IMG/VR virus record: IMGVR_UViG_3300043822_000021
Span: 4,641 to 68,640 of that record
Length of the DNA: 64,000 nt
Strand: one strand, 5' to 3'
From: a virus
Lineage: Duplodnaviria > Caudoviricetes
The notes under the pieces are model-generated. The model ran no database searches. It was not told the origin of the DNA and worked only from the letters and a program-made list of their open reading frames with translations. Positions within the stretch are counted from its first letter, which is position 1. Each line of letters starts with the position of its first letter. Below, one piece after another: positions 1,466 to 52,089 of the stretch. The translations under genes were made by a program, and so were the position numbers.

Positions 1466-3733
1466 CTAAGAAACAGTATAGTTAACGGTGTTAGGGTCTG
1501 TAGCAATAAATGCCACTTTACCCCGTTTCAATACGGTATCTTGGTCATTAGAGTATGATATTGATGTGATGGTAACGCCGGTACAAGCGTACTGTTGGCC
1601 ATTCCAATTGTCGCCCTGTTCGTCATCATAGGCTATTGTATAAAAATAGAATGTAAGACTTCCCCCTTGTGGAACTCTTAGCGATCCAGTCCAATCACAA
1701 GCGTCTTGCGTCGGGGCTGGGTACTCATTAACTGAAAAAATAGCCACTCGGCCAAAATCGGTTCTGGTGCCGTTGCTGTCAATGGTGTACATGTATGTTT
1801 GACCGTTAGTCAGCCCGGCTCTTTTATGTTTCTGTACGCCAGTATAGTCAAAATGTAAGGTCATCGTTAAATATGTAATAGTATCTATATATTTCCACGC
1901 CCCAGATTGGGCTTCTGTCTGCCAATTAGTATTGCTTTTAATATAATGACCATTACCCAATGCATTCCAACTTGTTAAAAACACGTTAGTTTTTACTGTT
2001 GAAGAACTGGAACCAGCACCAAGAACACTTTGACATCGCACATTAAATCCATTTGCTGATACATTGTAAGGGAAAACTTTTTGATAGATATTAACGTGTT
2101 CATAATTACTGTCACTTGTTTGTATTTCCATCGGTACAAGGATTACGCTAGGAGTAATATCCCATTTATTATTAAATTTTACATATTGACCATCACTGGC
2201 TGTGCCAGTACATAACCTACCAACAACCGAAAATGTATTTTTATTTGTGTCAACAAATGACATCCCATTACCATTAAATGTTACCTGCGACCCATTGGAA
2301 CAGTCGGTGGTTAACCCGTTTTCGTCCAGTGTAACGTTACCGCCTACGATTTTCAGGGCACCGGCCAGATTAATTGTATTAGCGGCTAGTTTATCAGCAG
2401 TTACAGCTCCTGATGTCAGTTTATCAGCAGTTACAGCACTAGCGCCTATAGAGTCAGCGGTCACGGCTCCGGTAGCAATCTTATCTGCTGTTACGGCATC
2501 GGCCTCGATTTTATCAGCAGTTACGGCATTGGTTGCTATCAATCCGGAGGTAATAGCATTGGCGGCAATATTCTCGGTAGTGATTGTACCTTCCTTAATT
2601 TTAGTGCCTACTACTTCATGGTCGCCGATATATTTGCCTACGATGACGCCATCATCAAATACAGTTTGGCTTGTTATATGTACAGCGTCCGGAGGAATTT
2701 CTTCCACTGTTCCTATTGTCTGCTCATTACTCCATACCCCTTCACCAAAGCAGTCATAGTAACAAGCTTTATAGGTGTATGACCCTGTAGAACAATAAAA
2801 ATTGAATGTATCGTCCTGACTATAATGTTTGTTGCCGTTGATAGAAATGCAGATGCCAATACAATCTTCTGGTATTTCAGAATAACTAAACTGCAACCCT
2901 TGATAGGTAGATATGGCGGTAATGCTTTGAGGAGCGGCTGGAACTGGTTTAGACCAATTCACCGTAACCGGTGTGGAGTATTTACTTCCGTATCCCTTGT
3001 TATACAGATAAGCCGTACCTTCACGCACAGGAGGCATTTTCGTAGATTTAGTATCCTGTGTTACTTCCAACAGGCCAACGGTACTCCCAACGTTCGTGTC
3101 TGTACGTAATTCGGAGTAAATATAGTCCAGATTCTTGCTCTGTCTCCACGTCCAGAGAACACCATCACGGTTGAAGTATACGGAGAAGTCCGTAGGTGGG
3201 TCTGGGACATTATTCAGGGCATTGACGGAATATATCAGTACCGGATTTCCAGAAGCTTCTGATACTGTACCAAGGTTATTTTTACCTTGGAATCTGATTT
3301 GATATGTATACCCGGCATTAATTCCATCAACGGTATATGTATTCGTCTTAGTTGTGCGGATTTCTCTTGATACCGCTATGTCATCCCAGTTAATGACCTC
3401 ATTGCCATCGCTTTTCTTTTCCTTGATATATATTTCACAGGATTCATAGTTCTTGATGTCGGAATAATCCCATGTAAGTATCAGGGAGATAGCCGTGCCC
3501 ACACGTACTTCCTGCACCTTGCAGTTCTTAATCTGTTCGTTTGTAGTGTCGGGGGTGTCTGTAACCGCATTTGCTATCTTGCTGATATACTCGAATTTTT
3601 CGTTCAGCTCGTCGGCGATGGTTCCCAGTGATTTCTTTAAGAGGAATATAAAGTTCTGGCCATTCCCATTCAGGGAGTTCGGCAATTTATTAAAAAGGTC
3701 TGATAATGCTTCTGATATCTTCTCGTTAGCCAT
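1466..3733 (-). CDS. Tail spike / host-specificity protein (fibronectin type III domains, AVTADKI repeats)
   Basis: 755 aa. FN3-like segments (LTWDY...YTVDGINAGYTYQIRF; PDPPTDF), about 8 copies of a 10-aa AVTADK(I/L) repeat, and a divergent C-terminus. Confidence 0.7.
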   Translation of the reverse strand: MANEKISEALSDLFNKLPNSLNGNGQNFIFLLKKSLGTIADELNEKFEYISKIANAVTDTPDTTNEQIKNCKVQEVRVGTAISLILTWDYSDIKNYESCEIYIKEKKSDGNEVINWDDIAVSREIRTTKTNTYTVDGINAGYTYQIRFQGKNNLGTVSEASGNPVLIYSVNALNNVPDPPTDFSVYFNRDGVLWTWRQSKNLDYIYSELRTDTNVGSTVGLLEVTQDTKSTKMPPVREGTAYLYNKGYGSKYSTPVTVNWSKPVPAAPQSITAISTYQGLQFSYSEIPEDCIGICISINGNKHYSQDDTFNFYCSTGSYTYKACYYDCFGEGVWSNEQTIGTVEEIPPDAVHITSQTVFDDGVIVGKYIGDHEVVGTKIKEGTITTENIAANAITSGLIATNAVTADKIEADAVTADKIATGAVTADSIGASAVTADKLTSGAVTADKLAANTINLAGALKIVGGNVTLDENGLTTDCSNGSQVTFNGNGMSFVDTNKNTFSVVGRLCTGTASDGQYVKFNNKWDITPSVILVPMEIQTSDSNYEHVNIYQKVFPYNVSANGFNVRCQSVLGAGSSSSTVKTNVFLTSWNALGNGHYIKSNTNWQTEAQSGAWKYIDTITYLTMTLHFDYTGVQKHKRAGLTNGQTYMYTIDSNGTRTDFGRVAIFSVNEYPAPTQDACDWTGSLRVPQGGSLTFYFYTIAYDDEQGDNWNGQQYACTGVTITSISYSNDQDTVLKRGKVAFIATDPNTVNYTVS

Positions 3734-3742
3734 TCAAACCTC

Positions 3743-4201
3743 CTAGATTAAATTAATAATAGCCTGTGCAAAGTCAGATTCCGTCTGCATATCAAACCCA
3801 TGGTTACTCATAGCCAGAATAATCATTATCTGTGTAGCCAAATCCAACAACCCCCAATTGGTAATTGGCAGTTCGCTATTCTCGTCTTTGATAAGAGGAA
3901 ATTTACGAAAATATCGGAGCGTCTTCGGCAATTTACCATAACATTCCAATTTACCATTACGGACTACAACGGGGGCCTGATTCGTAAACTGATAAAAGTC
4001 AGCAGGTACATCAGTCTGTTCGGCTGTTAGTGTGATATCCCCGATTACTTCGTGGTATTTCTGCTGAATCAGTACGTGCCAGATAAAATCCATGGCATCA
4101 TTCAGGTATGCTACAAGTTCAGCAGTATCATATCCAGTTTCTAGGCTGTCACTGAGCCGCTCCTTGACCGCCGCCTGACTGAGAAGTTCCTTCACTGTCA
4201 C
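3743..4201 (-). CDS. Head-tail adaptor-like protein (paralog 3)
   Basis: N-terminal helix, then ELVAYLNDAMDFI, then a DVPADF motif shared with the two neighbours; lies between capsid and tail genes. Confidence 0.55.
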   Translation of the reverse strand: MTVKELLSQAAVKERLSDSLETGYDTAELVAYLNDAMDFIWHVLIQQKYHEVIGDITLTAEQTDVPADFYQFTNQAPVVVRNGKLECYGKLPKTLRYFRKFPLIKDENSELPITNWGLLDLATQIMIILAMSNHGFDMQTESDFAQAIINLI

Positions 4202-4642: not shown

Positions 4643-5182
4643 TTAGCACCAGAATTCCATGGGACGTTCGATAACAGGATAATTGGATGACTGGGCTATA
4701 TTTTCTATTTCTTCCGAAATAAGACTATCCAGCCCGCCTTTGCCGATAGAGCCATCGAGTAGGCCCGTAGCATACCGGATAAACAACTGCAAAAATATTG
4801 CCGGTAAATCAATCTCATCTTCCATGGAAGTAACGGAATCAATAATGAAGTAATAATCCATCTTACTGGCTGTATCATCTATATATAAGGTGTTTTTAAC
4901 AATTCGGAAATCACCTGTGTATTCTAAATTTTCCTGCCCATCTTTAGTGGCATACATGCGTTTCATTTTTATAAAGTCGTTTGGCAATGTCGCTTTGCCG
5001 TTTTTTACTTTTAGCGATGTCTCTTTTACTATCCAGTTCGATTCACGATTAATCAGAAGCATATTGACTACACGTAATACTGCATTAATCGCTTCTAATA
5101 ATTCCGGGTCTGAATGTTTTCTTGCGTACATCTCACCCAGATTGAACAGGACAGCAGTAGCTATTTCCTGTACTCTAATCAT
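4643..5182 (-). CDS. Head-tail adaptor-like protein (paralog 1)
   Basis: HSDPELLEAINAVLRVV...TLPNDFIKM motif; immediately downstream of the capsid cluster. Confidence 0.6.
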   Translation of the reverse strand: MIRVQEIATAVLFNLGEMYARKHSDPELLEAINAVLRVVNMLLINRESNWIVKETSLKVKNGKATLPNDFIKMKRMYATKDGQENLEYTGDFRIVKNTLYIDDTASKMDYYFIIDSVTSMEDEIDLPAIFLQLFIRYATGLLDGSIGKGGLDSLISEEIENIAQSSNYPVIERPMEFWC

Positions 5183-5517
5183 TCACTGACTCCTTTGCGT
5201 GCCCCCGGAGTATAACACCGGAATTCTGGATTCTTCCAGAGCCATTTATCCATCCATTTCTTAGCTTCTACGTCATCTTTCCCCCGGAGATTGGAATACA
5301 TCTTCAATTCGTAATCAGTAAGGAATCGTGCTCTGGGAATACGTGCCAGACGTTTGGCTTTCCCACCTTCTATATTTTCAGAGCCGGGATTCATACGATC
5401 CAGATAACATGCCTTCATTACCTGATATTCGTCCCATGTATGAGTTATTCTGAATTCTCCGGTTTTCTCGTCTATTTCTACATCGCTATGCATAATAGCC
5501 ATATATTCCACCCCCAA
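5179..5517 (-). CDS. Hypothetical virion-associated protein
   Basis: 112-aa ORF following the major capsid gene, ending in the W...NPEFR motif common after SU10-type capsid genes. Confidence 0.6.
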   Translation of the reverse strand: MGVEYMAIMHSDVEIDEKTGEFRITHTWDEYQVMKACYLDRMNPGSENIEGGKAKRLARIPRARFLTDYELKMYSNLRGKDDVEAKKWMDKWLWKNPEFRCYTPGARKGVSE

Positions 5518-47280: not shown

Positions 47281-47314
47281 AAAAAAAATAAAGCCCCTTT
47301 CGGGGCTTTTATTT
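47281..47314. terminator. Bidirectional terminator between the repressor and polymerase genes
   Basis: AAAGCCCC-TTTC-GGGGCTTT with A- and T-runs on either side. Confidence 0.85.
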
Positions 47315-50170
47315 ATGTTGGCATTCATGGAAGTCCATGATGCGTGATGCTCTTAATTTCATTTCATACACCTTATGTGCCTTCAACTCCTTATATCTCT
47401 GGTTGAATATCACCAAATCCCTGACTTCTCTGTTGTCTCTGACTTTTACGAACGCCATCGGTTTACCATTGCGTGTCTTGCGCCCCTTCACCTCTAATAC
47501 TTCATACCCGAATACGGTTACATTATTGACCGCCTTCATCTCGAAGTCTTCAAAGATATCACAGAACGACATACCGATTACTTTGGCTTCCTCTTCGGCC
47601 TTGTTATACATAGTTTCTGTATATTTAAACGGCGGCCTTGATTTTCTTTTGTCCTTGAACCAAGTCACATATTGTATCATTTCATCACGGTTCCCATCGA
47701 ACGCTCCGGCTTTGATAAGATTCTCAATTACACGTTTGTTTAAAGAACCGTAGGAATCCATGAATAACTTAAAATCTTTAGGTGCATCCTTGGGTATTTC
47801 TACATTCCCTACACCACTTATGCAATTCAGCCCCAGTATGATGTACCCTCCATTTTCGTCATAGTCTGCGTAGCAGTTTCTATGTTCCAGTGTTGGTGGG
47901 AATATCCTGATGCCGGACTTTTTGCAATCCATTATATAATCCACTAGTTTTGGCTTATCCTTACAGTTGCTATCCAAAAGGCTTGCCATAAAATACGGGC
48001 GATAATGGCACTTGAACCATGCCGTTGCCCAAGCAGTCATACCATAAGCGGCAGAATGGCCCCTATTAAATCCATAAGAGGCGAACGTTACGATGTTATC
48101 CGTTATTTTCTTCATCACTTCCCGTGGATGGCCGTTCTGTACACCTTTTTCTATCATATCATCTATTACTGGTTGCATTTCATCAACCTTTTTCCTGCCT
48201 ACGATTCTCCGCAGGTTATCCGCCTGACCTAATGTATATCCACAAAGGGCCTGTGCAATCTGCATAATCTGTTCCTGATACACAATAATCCCTTCTGTAT
48301 CTTTTAGTATAGGTTCCAGTTTCGGATCGTCATACACAACCTTTTCCTGATGGTTTCTACGTTTAAGGAAGTGTTCAACCATCCCGGAATCCAACGGCCC
48401 CGGACGACCCAAGGCAACGACGGCCACCATATCTTCTACGGTCTTTACGTTCATCCGTCTGATGATATTCGTCATTACCTGAGATTCTATCTGGAAACAT
48501 CCTTTTGTATCGCATCGTCTCAGCATTTCTGCAGTGGCTTTATCATCGGTGGGAATCCGGGATATATCTATGTTCTTCCCAATACGATGCTTTGTCTGCT
48601 CCAGTACATCCAAAGTTTCCAGACCAAGGATATCAAGTTTTAACAACCCCTGAGCTTCAAGCTGGTGGAAGTCATGACATACCACCATATCATCGCCCTG
48701 CTTTTCTACAGCTGTCCAGTTGCATACATCCTCTGGAGCTACCAGTACGGCAGAAGCATGTTTACCATAGGAAATGATATGGCCACGGAATTTCATGGCC
48801 AATGCCTTCCATTCTTTTTCCTTGTGGGTCGTGGAGGGCATATCTTCGACGTTGACTAAGTTCTTCGATACCTTATTAATAACCGCCGGTTCAACTCCTA
48901 ATGCCTGACCAGCTCTTTGTACAGCTGATTTTTCCTTTATATACGATGTTGTTCTAATCTGGTATACTTCGCCGTACCGTTGCTGAATGTAATTGATTAC
49001 CTCGTTTCTTCTGGGAGTAGACACATCTGTGTCCACGTCCGCTGGGGTTACACGTTCTGGGTTGGCGAACCGTTCAAATACGAGGTTATACTTAATCGGG
49101 TCTATCTGTGTGATACCCATCAACCAAGCTACGGTACTTCCGACAACACTACCACGGCCAAGGCCGGTTGGGATATTGTTTTCTCTACACCACCGCAACA
49201 TATCATCAATGATGCAGAAATAATTCATATAACCGAGCTGATTCAGTACATCCAGCTCGTGCTTAACCTGCTTTATATACACAGCTTTATTTGGATAACT
49301 GGCAATACCCATGTTCTTGTACCCTTCGTTGCACTTATCTCTGACATACGTTTCTGGGTCATCACAAAACACTGGGTAATGTTCTCCACCAAATTCTATT
49401 TCAACGTTACATTTATCTACGATTTCCTGTACATTCTCGATGTAGGGTCTAGTATCAATACCATACTGATTGAACCAGTCGATAATTTCCCCTTCGCTAC
49501 GCAGATAATAGTCGTCAGAGGCATAATACTGGGAATCATCACCAAGGCCTAGCCACAATTTATGTGCCTGAATATCTTCTTTATTGATATAGTGGCTGTC
49601 CAAGGTGATAATAGTCTTTACTTCCGAGAAATAATCGGCCCATTTCTGGTTGTATTCAATCTGTTCGGGGAAGTCATGAGGTTGAATTTCCACATACAAA
49701 TCTTCACTACCGAATACTTCTAATAAGTCATTATATACTGTCAACGGGTCTCCTGCACTCAATGGCCCAGCGACACAGGCCGTGGTGCAGATAAGCCCTT
49801 CATGGTATTCACGGAGTGCTTCTATGCCGATACGTGGCTTGCGATAAAAATGCTTGTGGGCATACGTATCCAATTTCATCAGATTCTTGTATCCTGTATT
49901 GTTTTTAGCAAGAATTAACAGGTGATAGGTGGGAGTATCATTAATCGTAATCTCGTTTGTATAATAGAACTCACAACCAAGGATAGGCTTGATTCCCTGT
50001 TTCTTACATTCTTCGTAGAAATCAATCAGCCCGGTAACTGTTCCATGGTCTGTAATAGCCAGAGCCGGATAGCCAAGTTCTTTGGCTTTGCTTACTAATT
50101 CTGGTATTTTGGCAAATCCGTCGTGCAGACTTGCGTCGGTGTGTTGGTGTAGATTAGAAAACATATACAT
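47309..50170 (-). CDS. dnaE: DNA polymerase III alpha subunit (family C)
   Basis: PHP domain LHQHTDASLHDG...AITDH; GRGSVVGS, ADVDTD, KLDILGL, YQEQIMQ and YGFNRGHS motifs. Confidence 0.95.
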   Translation of the reverse strand: MYMFSNLHQHTDASLHDGFAKIPELVSKAKELGYPALAITDHGTVTGLIDFYEECKKQGIKPILGCEFYYTNEITINDTPTYHLLILAKNNTGYKNLMKLDTYAHKHFYRKPRIGIEALREYHEGLICTTACVAGPLSAGDPLTVYNDLLEVFGSEDLYVEIQPHDFPEQIEYNQKWADYFSEVKTIITLDSHYINKEDIQAHKLWLGLGDDSQYYASDDYYLRSEGEIIDWFNQYGIDTRPYIENVQEIVDKCNVEIEFGGEHYPVFCDDPETYVRDKCNEGYKNMGIASYPNKAVYIKQVKHELDVLNQLGYMNYFCIIDDMLRWCRENNIPTGLGRGSVVGSTVAWLMGITQIDPIKYNLVFERFANPERVTPADVDTDVSTPRRNEVINYIQQRYGEVYQIRTTSYIKEKSAVQRAGQALGVEPAVINKVSKNLVNVEDMPSTTHKEKEWKALAMKFRGHIISYGKHASAVLVAPEDVCNWTAVEKQGDDMVVCHDFHQLEAQGLLKLDILGLETLDVLEQTKHRIGKNIDISRIPTDDKATAEMLRRCDTKGCFQIESQVMTNIIRRMNVKTVEDMVAVVALGRPGPLDSGMVEHFLKRRNHQEKVVYDDPKLEPILKDTEGIIVYQEQIMQIAQALCGYTLGQADNLRRIVGRKKVDEMQPVIDDMIEKGVQNGHPREVMKKITDNIVTFASYGFNRGHSAAYGMTAWATAWFKCHYRPYFMASLLDSNCKDKPKLVDYIMDCKKSGIRIFPPTLEHRNCYADYDENGGYIILGLNCISGVGNVEIPKDAPKDFKLFMDSYGSLNKRVIENLIKAGAFDGNRDEMIQYVTWFKDKRKSRPPFKYTETMYNKAEEEAKVIGMSFCDIFEDFEMKAVNNVTVFGYEVLEVKGRKTRNGKPMAFVKVRDNREVRDLVIFNQRYKELKAHKVYEMKLRASRIMDFHECQHK

Positions 50171-50229: not shown

Positions 50230-50264
50230 CAAAAAAAAAATAGCCACCGAATTAACGGTGGCTA
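50230..50264 (-). terminator. Terminator ending the lysis cassette
   Basis: TAGCCACCG/CGGTGGCTA stem followed by a T-run on the minus strand. Confidence 0.8.
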
Positions 50265-50390: not shown

Positions 50391-50834
50391 TTATTTTGCA
50401 ATGAAAGCTCCAAGCAGGATACCGGCTACAGTCCAGCCTGTCTTATTCTGCCTGTTCTTGACCTGAAGCTTGTGTTTCAGAGAGTCCATTTGCTTCGTCA
50501 ATGTCTCTAAATTCTTCTCCAATTTCTCCGATGATTCGTTGGCTGTCGCTAATGACTGCTGAGCTTTGTTCATTGCGTCCTCGCAGTCCATCAGTTGTTT
50601 CTTCAGCCTGTCTAATTCCTGCTTGTCCACGTTCGAGTTCTGCTCTAGTACGTTCAAGTTCAGTTCTAATTGTGCGATTTTCATCTTTAAGTTGTTGTAT
50701 CGTGTTATAGGCATTTTCACTGTCTGCTCTGGCTGACTGGATACTATCGTAGACGGTGATTCCGCCAATGACACAGACAGCGGCAAGAGCAACAATAATA
50801 AGCCAACGAATAATACTTTTATTTTGTTCCACAT
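50391..50834 (-). CDS. Spanin-like component: signal peptide, coiled coil and C-terminal hydrophobic anchor
   Basis: ATG at 50834 after GGAGG; MWNKIKVLFVGLLLLLLPLSVSLA|E, heptad coil, WTVAGILLGAFIAK; no lipobox Cys. Confidence 0.7.
   Translation of the reverse strand: MWNKIKVLFVGLLLLLLPLSVSLAESPSTIVSSQPEQTVKMPITRYNNLKMKIAQLELNLNVLEQNSNVDKQELDRLKKQLMDCEDAMNKAQQSLATANESSEKLEKNLETLTKQMDSLKHKLQVKNRQNKTGWTVAGILLGAFIAK
50443..50832 (-). CDS. i-spanin-like component, fully embedded in another frame
   Basis: GTG at 50832; N-terminal TM (WLIIVALAAVCVIGGITVY) followed by a long coiled coil. Confidence 0.65.
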   Translation of the reverse strand: MEQNKSIIRWLIIVALAAVCVIGGITVYDSIQSARADSENAYNTIQQLKDENRTIRTELERTRAELERGQAGIRQAEETTDGLRGRNEQSSAVISDSQRIIGEIGEEFRDIDEANGLSETQASGQEQAE

Positions 50835-50835
50835 C

Positions 50836-51405
50836 TTACCCCTCCATATACGAAATATCAGCATCTAATTTTTGGTCTCCGAACCATTCTTTGTCTGAGT
50901 ACTGCCAAATATCGCACTGTAAATCCGGCTGGTAGTTATACTGTGCCAGCCAAATGACATAACGGTCTTTAAGGTGGCCAAAATCAAGACGATTGGTAAA
51001 CCAATCGTAATTAGCGTACACACCAGCACGCAGACCATGACCATCAGCAAATGCATCACACATATCAGTGCACTGGCTATAATCAATCCCATTCCTATCC
51101 CTCCAACCGTCAGCATCTTCTTGGTCGTAGAACACAGGAAGTTCAAGCAGTCCTCCCCAAGCGTCAATAATTTCACGGCAGTATTCTCCTTCTCTTCGGG
51201 CCGCATCAGCATCCAGCGCATATGAATACCAATAAGCCCCGACTTTGAACCCCCGGTTCAATGCTTCGTTGGCATATTCTTCAAACTTTTCATCTTTGTG
51301 TCCCTGACCCCAACCGGCACGGACAATAACAAATTCGACGCCTGCTTCCTGCAGTGCACCCCAATCTACATAACTCTGGTTTTCAGAAATATCTACACCT
51401 TTAAT
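50836..51405 (-). CDS. GH25 muramidase endolysin, catalytic domain only; apparent ATT start
   Basis: The frame is open upstream of the track ORF: IKGVDISENQ...FVIVRAGWG...GAYWYSYA...FYDQED...WQYS. The first in-frame codon after the stop and RBS is CGA-ATT. Confidence 0.88.
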   Translation of the reverse strand: MKGVDISENQSYVDWGALQEAGVEFVIVRAGWGQGHKDEKFEEYANEALNRGFKVGAYWYSYALDADAARREGEYCREIIDAWGGLLELPVFYDQEDADGWRDRNGIDYSQCTDMCDAFADGHGLRAGVYANYDWFTNRLDFGHLKDRYVIWLAQYNYQPDLQCDIWQYSDKEWFGDQKLDADISYMEG

Positions 51406-51707
51406 TCGTCATCACTCCTATCTTTCTTTGGCTCAATCCTCGTAGCAGGAGGGCATGGGAATTGACCATTTGGACTATTCTTAGCTGAATCTACCAGCCA
51501 CTTAAACAGCCCTACAAGACCTACACCACATGCACTGATACCCTGCCAGCAGGAATTGATTTCAAAACGAGTACCCCATAAACCATTAGACCAATACCCA
51601 TATACCCATGACACGAGCACTATGGAGGCGGCGAACAGACCAAAACCCATGCAGATAATGGCCATATTCCGCTTCACGGCAGACATGAAATTTTTTATGT
51701 GTCTCAT
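51393..51707 (-). CDS. Holin-like membrane protein
   Basis: Two hydrophobic spans and a charged C-terminus; directly upstream of the endolysin. Confidence 0.7.
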   Translation of the reverse strand: MRHIKNFMSAVKRNMAIICMGFGLFAASIVLVSWVYGYWSNGLWGTRFEINSCWQGISACGVGLVGLFKWLVDSAKNSPNGQFPCPPATRIEPKKDRSDDELKV

Positions 51708-52048
51708 AAGCGTTCCAGCTTGTTCTGTATCAATTCAATCCTTGTCTCCATGGACTGAAATCTCTCTTTGAAGTGTGCCTCATCTACAAGCATCTGCCTC
51801 TGCTCTGTGCCCAGTTTATCAACCAAGTTGCTCAGACTGGATATACTATGGGATAGTTGGTCGTATTTATTACTTAATGCTTTGGCTCGTTCCTGTTCTC
51901 TTTCTTCCTTCATTCTGTCATACTTTTCTTTCCATTTGCGTTCTTCTTCACGGTGGTCGAAATATGGCTTGAGAATCCCCTGTCTGAATCCTGCAAGAGC
52001 CGTAAACACAACCCCTAACGCTTCTAATACGATAATGATGCTCTCCAT
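51704..52048 (-). CDS. Membrane-anchored coiled-coil lysis-cassette protein
   Basis: N-terminal TM followed by a coiled coil. Confidence 0.6.
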   Translation of the reverse strand: MESIIIVLEALGVVFTALAGFRQGILKPYFDHREEERKWKEKYDRMKEEREQERAKALSNKYDQLSHSISSLSNLVDKLGTEQRQMLVDEAHFKERFQSMETRIELIQNKLERL

Positions 52049-52066: not shown

Positions 52067-52089
52067 AAAAGGGGCGGATTACCGCCCCT
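52067..52089 (-). terminator. Terminator after the giant virion gene
   Basis: GGGGCGG/CCGCCCC stem with a T-run on the minus strand. Confidence 0.75.

Follow-up and report, generated by a model that had tools for sequence, protein, structure and literature searches.

Two fully overlapping reading frames at the end of a Megasphaera phage lysis cassette encode a candidate spanin-like pair without a lipoprotein

The window analysed here, a stretch of 64 kb out of a single-contig phage genome of 68,640 bp, contains the lysis cassette of a Megasphaera phage. The last element of this cassette is a stretch of 444 bases in which two reading frames encode two membrane-anchored helical proteins. Frame A (50391-50834, minus strand, as are all the features given below) starts with an ATG at 50834 and encodes 147 amino acids (aa), while frame B (50443-50832) starts with a GTG at 50832, encodes 129 aa and lies in the +2 (-1) frame relative to A. 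A common Shine-Dalgarno sequence, GGAGG (50841-50845), is located 6 nt ahead of the ATG of A and 8 nt ahead of the GTG of B, and a single nucleotide separates the ATG from the TAA stop codon of the endolysin gene (50836-50838). An earlier note on this DNA had described two starts 2 nt apart behind one GGAGG and two ORFs running together for 130 codons. The coordinates and the arrangement of the starts proved correct, and we measured the overlap as 129 codons plus the stop codon. The DNA encoding the transmembrane (TM) helix of B (50749-50805) is the same that encodes, in the other frame, the hydrophobic core and the cleavage region of the signal peptide of A. The C-terminal apolar tail of A (W-T-V-A-G...K; 50394-50435) is encoded past the stop codon of B and belongs to A only. 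The layout of the starts, a GGAGG-like site followed by ATGTGG, was found in eight of the ten listed lineages; deviant starts were seen in locus L101, which has two ATGs 4 nt apart, and in L014, where a TTG precedes the ATG by 4 nt.

The cassette lies downstream of a gene encoding a protein of 2754 aa, and an intrinsic terminator (52070-52089) separates the two. The first gene of the cassette (51704-52048) encodes 114 aa, with an apolar segment at the N-terminus ahead of a coiled coil, and its synteny is conserved. The product of the second (51393-51707), 104 aa long, contains two apolar segments, ends in a charged tail and is holin-like by position and topology. It matched phrog_28789 (unknown function; E 5e-10), and its synteny is likewise kept in relatives. 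The third gene (50836-51405) encodes the endolysin, a GH25 muramidase of 189 aa that was matched by PF01183 (E 2e-26) and by endolysin PHROGs. This is a single-domain enzyme without a wall-binding domain, so the earlier description of a pair directly behind a binding-domain-free lysin is accurate. A strong intrinsic terminator (50241-50264) with a 9-bp stem and a T10 run lies about 125 nt past the stop codon of A and ends the lysis transcription unit; it is followed by the gene of the DNA polymerase polIII-alpha (47309-50170; 953 aa). In short, two overlapping genes close the lysis cassette of this phage, whose host is diderm.

The start of the endolysin gene is unusual, as its frame contains no in-frame ATG, GTG or TTG after the upstream stops. 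The apparent start is an ATT at 51405, located 9 nt after an AGGAG and overlapping the end of the gene for the 104-aa holin-like protein. In the record of the Megasphaera hexanoica copy (L096), the 189-aa lysin is called from the same ATT, and other gene callers shorten the lysin to 75-141 aa (L097-L100). Such a weak start codon may throttle lysin synthesis. A programmed frameshift by which ribosomes would pass from the 104-aa ORF to the lysin frame was also considered and rejected, since we found no slippery site and the ATT start behind AGGAG accounts for the lysin frame.

Protein B is composed of a few basic residues, an apolar TM stretch at approximately residues 10-28, a long helix reaching residue 114, the conserved C-terminal motif EF.DID.ANG..ETQ and an acidic tail. 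AlphaFold2, run with the family alignment, predicted a helix over residues 2-114 (mean pLDDT 81.5) followed by a disordered acidic end. The N-terminal apolar run, of 19 residues in the B protein of the window, has a family-wide median of 21 residues and a mean Kyte-Doolittle hydropathy of 2.45. I-spanins are type II proteins of the inner membrane that carry a TM domain at the N-terminus and a helical or coiled-coil periplasmic domain, and B fits this description by its predicted topology. This agrees with the i-spanin-like N-terminal anchor that the earlier note had assigned to one of the two ORFs, placed here at residues 10-28 after basic residues.

Sequence similarity between B and known spanins is marginal. 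A profile search with B recovered 56 clusters. The three commonest Rz-like spanin PHROGs were each matched by 10-12 of 28 B members, weakly (E 1e-2 to 3e-5), and the B protein of the window had four weak matches to Rz-like PHROGs (E 8e-4 to 9e-3). No Rz family was over the threshold in a Pfam search of B. Protein Atlas rows that pair B with Rz-type families (PF03245, DUF2570) have scores of only 0.81-0.84 and serve as leads only, the nearest clusters being unnamed. The weak matches to Rz-like families could come from the common composition of a TM segment plus a coiled coil alone.

Protein A is organised differently. A Sec-type signal peptide (residues 1-24) is followed by a flexible Ser/Thr/Pro-rich stretch, a helix (43-133), an apolar tail (134-146) and a terminal Lys. 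Its N-terminus is basic and continues with a 13-residue hydrophobic core and a signal-peptidase I site, S-L-A/E, after residue 24, and there is no Cys before residue 84. AlphaFold2, with an alignment of 29 sequences, predicted residues 43-146 as one continuous helix (mean pLDDT 89, and >94 along the helix). Each product is therefore predicted to form one long helix, in line with the coiled coils that had been proposed for both. According to the predicted structures, A and B are mirror-image chains, each with a periplasmic helix of about 13 nm, the anchor being N-terminal in B and C-terminal in A.

The profile search with A recovered 193 cluster representatives at E<=1e-3, nearly all of them 140-175 aa long and matching from end to end. 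These proteins have in common the signal-peptidase site, the motif QTV.MS..QYN.LK and a K/R-RQRD-x-W-A..AG tail, in which the apolar part comes after a conserved K/R-rich RQRD/NRQNK motif. Across the family, the apolar run of the tail has a median of 15 residues and a mean hydropathy of 1.77, and is both shorter and weaker than the TM helix of B. A canonical lipobox was present in three of 125 A family members, and no ORF with a lipobox turned up when the entire 68.6-kb phage genome was searched in six frames. These data bear out two further statements of the earlier note, namely that the larger ORF combines a cleavable-type signal peptide and a C-terminal apolar tail with the lack of a lipobox Cys, and that the pair has no lipoprotein partner. 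Compared with PHROGs, A matched only generic coiled-coil families and, weakly, phrog_937 ('hemolysin', XhlA-like; E 2e-5 for the A protein of the window), a family matched by 11 of 29 A members. Pfam XhlA (PF10779) was not among the Pfam matches of A at E<0.1.

Members of the family were found in M. hexanoica (WP_170087600.1, AXB82008.1, AXB81797.1), Megasphaera elsdenii (CCC74139.1, WP_157868809.1, WP_027895487.1) and Veillonella atypica (SUP07115.1). The first of these proteins, encoded on a 107-kb contig, is about 95% identical to frame B, and the Veillonella cluster comprises 973 members. The named hosts, which come from only five records and three species, all belong to the Veillonellaceae, class Negativicutes. 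With near-identical copies and family members in these three species, the host is a diderm Firmicute, as had been supposed, and not a monoderm. Host contigs range from 0.1 to 2.9 Mb, and since they reach 2.9 Mb we regard those copies as prophages. The metagenomes that contain the stretch derive from bioreactor sludge, sheep gut, landfill and wastewater; no RNA data set was listed beside these DNA sources. With blastn, the cassette had no counterpart among GenBank phages, and a search of genome contigs with B alone found no related locus.

Two unrelated phage types carry the pair behind the endolysin. One is the group of approximately 66-68 kb that encodes polIII and includes the window; the other consists of T7-like podophages, with the gene order tail fibre, holin_4_1, GH25, pair and gp18/gp19 terminase genes. 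Five loci (L001, L008, L012, L102 and L103) have a 209-aa VgrG3-like_C (PF21277) lysozyme in the position where the window, L004 and L096 have GH25, both lysin types being devoid of a wall-binding domain. The holin-like gene and the dual-frame pair stay in place through this lysin swap and through insertions of extra genes, which indicates that the module travels with lysis cassettes.

Several of these loci have additional features, among them mobile insertions around the module. L004 has two such insertions, a D12-class methyltransferase that separates the lysin from the pair and an HNH endonuclease ahead of polIII (3269-3979, 4676-5419). The T7-like L101 has, between GH25 and the pair, a 76-aa ORF (4762-4992) whose product combines a coiled coil with an apolar C-terminal segment, a layout like that of XhlA. 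The polIII-alpha genes of L102 (5657-9304) and L012 (6618-10265) contain an HNH-domain intein and encode 1215 aa, versus 953 aa for the gene of the window. Among cellular proteins (L016-L095), polIII-alpha is closest to the DnaE proteins of Gastranaerophilales, Paenibacillus and Omnitrophota, with 32-38% identity, and not to those of Negativicutes; the phage polymerase was therefore not recently acquired from the host. Searched against genome contigs, the L010 polIII found only cellular DnaE at 32-38% identity, a result that does not point to any host.

To assess coding in both frames, we compared the DNA of relatives with 29-57% protein identity (L001, L004, L005, L008, L010, L012, L014 and L101-L104) and collected 79 loci from IMG/VR by a pattern search built on part of the A family. 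Every one of the 89 related loci had both frames open, even where A is only about 30% identical. All 79 IMG/VR loci had an open run of 125-162 codons across A in the +2 frame, and 7-23 stops in the +1 sense frame. For 72 of these 79, automatic calling gave a +2 ORF whose N-terminal part is an apolar helix (hydropathy 2.1-3.2); for the remaining seven the scripted start call was too far downstream. We then used a shuffle test, in which one protein and its codon usage were fixed and synonymous codons were permuted. With A fixed, B was open in 0.04-9% of the shuffles per lineage (P 0.0004-0.09), and with B fixed, A was open in 4-63% (P 0.04-0.63). Multiplied over six diverged lineages, these probabilities amount to about 1e-13 for B and 1e-6 for A. 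An overlap of this kind goes far past what chance would produce.

Selection could also be seen at the level of codons. At identical residues of diverged pairs, codon identity was 0.52-0.69 in A and 0.60-0.81 in B, compared with 0.38-0.48 for polIII, the adjacent gene, in the same pairs of phages, although polIII is the more conserved protein. All 12 comparisons placed both the identity and the BLOSUM score of B above an A-only null (P_score <= 0.001), for example with 0.47 observed identity versus 0.27 under the null. Among 32 Veillonella-type variants, nucleotide diversity (pi) in the overlap was 0.058, 0.065 and 0.103 at positions 1, 2 and 3 of the A codons, a flattened bias, whereas the tail of A past the stop codon of B had the ordinary pattern of a translated gene (0.039, 0.033 and 0.140). 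In the Veillonella subgroup, the variable sites of this tail numbered 10/28, 9/28 and 25/29 at codon positions 1, 2 and 3. The choice of Leu codons (TTR versus CTN), considered as a possible signature of B, was modestly enriched in the signal-peptide region of A (0.70) over its coiled-coil part (0.64; Fisher P 0.008), a result to which we give little weight, and was 0.45 in other genes of the phage. Both ORFs are, in sum, kept in divergent relatives, with synonymous constraint in each frame, and on this comparative evidence we consider with high confidence that both frames are functional genes. The possibility that only one frame is conserved, which would have undermined the earlier note, does not hold: both frames are open in every related locus and under selection.

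The sense strand of the overlap is poor in T (19-25%), and this composition has consequences for other frames. In most lineages, no more than one stop occurs in the antisense frame whose codons are in register with those of B, and ORFs reach up to 157 aa (L001). We rejected these antisense ORFs as genes and regard them as a side effect of the shortage of T in the sense strand; in L012, eight stops interrupt the frame. As regards the public data, gene callers pick one frame per locus, sometimes A and sometimes B, and one of the two proteins is consequently missing, in a systematic manner, from the annotation of Negativicutes phages and prophages. The protein of P0005, an ENA contig of 731 bp, is a chimera of frame A residues 1-66 followed by frame B, which points to a frameshift, due either to a sequencing error or to a real indel in the metagenome contig.

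The Negativicutes have an outer membrane with LPS that is tethered by OmpM instead of Lpp and is built without Lol. Negativicutes have neither LolA nor LolB (PMC5007114), and in Veillonella parvula no acylated outer-membrane lipoproteins were detected (PMC5491611). The classical o-spanin or u-spanin relies on the sorting of a lipoprotein to the outer membrane (PMC6139136), and in hosts without LolA and LolB a classical o-spanin lipoprotein could therefore not be sorted there. Since the named hosts are all diderm and lack the pathway on which classical spanins depend, these phages must encode some means of dealing with the outer membrane, and the pair is the best candidate for it. In the literature, we found no paper joining spanins with Negativicutes or Veillonella phages, and none on the dual-frame arrangement.

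Our preferred reading, which we hold with moderate confidence, is that the pair is a lipoprotein-free, two-component spanin analogue, with B as the inner-membrane subunit and A in the place of the o-spanin. In the mechanism that we propose, one ribosome-binding site would serve two start codons 2 nt apart. B would be inserted as a type II inner-membrane protein, with an N-terminal TM helix and a periplasmic helix of about 13 nm, similar to an i-spanin. A would be exported by Sec and cleaved by signal peptidase I to give a helix of about 13.5 nm whose N-terminus is flexible and Ser/Thr-rich and whose C-terminus is a short apolar anchor. Once holin and GH25 lysin had acted, the A/B pair would remove the outer-membrane barrier, the two proteins acting jointly as the spanin equivalent of phages of Negativicutes such as Megasphaera and Veillonella. 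The earlier interpretation of the locus as a distinct spanin-like system of diderm Firmicutes gains support from the dual-frame selection, the predicted topologies and the diderm hosts; outer-membrane disruption itself, like the translation of both frames, the binding of A to B and the membrane in which the tail of A resides, is what we infer from these data.

Two topologies are possible for a spanin-like pair. In the first, the proteins would form a bridge, the conserved C-terminal tip of B meeting the conserved N-terminal tip of mature A while the tail of A sits in the outer membrane. The C-terminal anchoring of the larger protein there, as supposed earlier, is thus one of two alternatives. 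In its detailed form, the helix with 15 apolar residues (W..AG) of A would lie in the outer membrane, EF.DID.AN of B would meet QTV.MS..QYN.LK of A so that the two helices of about 13 nm are joined end to end across the periplasm, and the pair would rupture or fuse the membranes, as a new class of spanins free of a lipid anchor; we put this forward tentatively, as doubtful in its entirety. In the second topology, the tail of A would be a stop-transfer anchor, and the two proteins would stand side by side in the inner membrane, paired in antiparallel orientation. As both would then reside in the inner membrane, their distal tips would have to bind a component of the outer membrane. An element with this capacity is not obvious in A or B, neither of which has a lipid anchor, a beta-barrel or a hydrophobic distal tip, and a stop-transfer role of the tail would leave the link to the outer membrane unexplained.

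The same stop-transfer tail, by placing both proteins in the inner membrane, would be compatible with a different role, in which A and B are both real and act as accessory or regulatory factors of the holin-endolysin step, through timing, an antiholin activity or XhlA-like help. We consider this unlikely. The weak matches of A to phrog_937, a family with a coiled coil and a C-terminal TM segment, argue for it, as does the occurrence of other small coiled-coil membrane proteins in these cassettes (the 114-aa ORF, and the 76-aa ORF in L101). However, a holin-like gene and another gene of the TM-coiled-coil type are already present upstream in the cassette, the terminal, post-lysin position of the pair is typical of spanins, Pfam XhlA does not match, and no other outer-membrane candidate was found in the genome.

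Less probable still is a membrane function outside lysis, such as superinfection exclusion, envelope remodelling or a role in lysogeny. Many copies reside in integrated prophages, as a lysogenic role would have it; against this, the linkage to the endolysin is tight and repeated in two unrelated phage architectures, the pair lies inside a terminator-bounded late unit, and its start, 1 nt past the stop codon of the lysin, has the layout typical of translational coupling. Finally, the notion that only one frame is a gene, and that the other is kept open by a composition in which stops are rare in several frames, draws on the T-poor sense strand, on the nearly open antisense frame aligned with B in several lineages and on the lineage in which A had a probability of up to 0.63 of being open with B fixed, yet it is very improbable given the stops of the +1 sense frame everywhere, the eight in the antisense frame of L012, the product over six lineages for B, the conservation of B residues above the A-only null, the ordinary purifying selection on the non-overlapped tail in frame A and the signal-peptidase site kept by the 193-member A family.

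We know of no described route by which phages of diderm Firmicutes pass the outer membrane, and a lipoprotein-free spanin analogue encoded by this pair would be a concrete candidate that can be tested genetically in tractable hosts (Veillonella). The locus also shows dual coding over the full length of a gene with unusual clarity and depth: about 130 codons are used in two frames, and both products are predicted to be long, structured, membrane-anchored helices. This dual coding persists in unrelated phage types and in relatives with as little as about 30% identity, and runs against the usual picture of overprinted proteins as short and disordered. If the bridge topology were true, the pair would represent a spanin class suited to diderm Firmicutes without Lol, made of two structured helical proteins that are encoded full-length by the same DNA.

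With regard to known families and systems, phrog_18860 (PHROGs v4) was matched by 17 of 28 B proteins (best E 7e-57). Frame B is thus already a catalogued phage protein family, although this entry carries no known function and does not record the second frame. XhlA of PBSX and phrog_937 resemble A as small coiled-coil proteins with a C-terminal membrane segment that are encoded in lysis cassettes, in keeping with the weak matches of A. In contrast to A, proteins of the XhlA type have no signal peptide, are encoded upstream of the holin in phages of monoderm hosts and are not dual-coded, and the Pfam family does not recognise A. T1 gp11, a unimolecular spanin, shares with A an N-terminal export signal, a C-terminal membrane segment and the last position in the lysis cassette. 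It differs in being a lipoprotein that is anchored in the outer membrane by its lipobox Cys and acts alone, whereas A has a C-terminal apolar tail and no lipobox, is always co-encoded with B and ends in a membrane segment that is short (median of 15 apolar residues). A is for these reasons not a unimolecular spanin of the T1 gp11 type.

The comparison with two-component spanins of the Rz/Rz1 type is closer. The genes of lambda Rz/Rz1 and T7 18.5/18.7 are likewise the last of their lysis cassettes, with one gene wholly inside the other in a different frame, and embedded spanin genes are known in both the +1 and the -1 register (PMC6139136). These systems also include a type II inner-membrane partner whose periplasmic domain is a helical coiled coil, and the conserved termini of the two proteins could meet tip to tip. 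The differences lie in the second partner, in the extent of the overlap and in the hosts. The partner in Rz/Rz1-type pairs is a small, Pro-rich outer-membrane lipoprotein, whereas A is the larger protein of its pair, is fully helical, has a signal of the SPase I type and ends in an apolar tail. The start of an embedded o-spanin typically lies at 0.4-0.5 of the length of the i-spanin, whereas here the overlap begins with the first codon of B and covers nearly the whole gene. The hosts of the present phages are without Lol, and the similarity to Rz families is marginal. As an o-spanin is defined as an outer-membrane lipoprotein with a lipobox Cys, and A has no Cys in its signal region and a cleavage site of the S-x-A type, we do not file the pair as a member of Rz/Rz1; it probably works, nonetheless, like Rz/Rz1.
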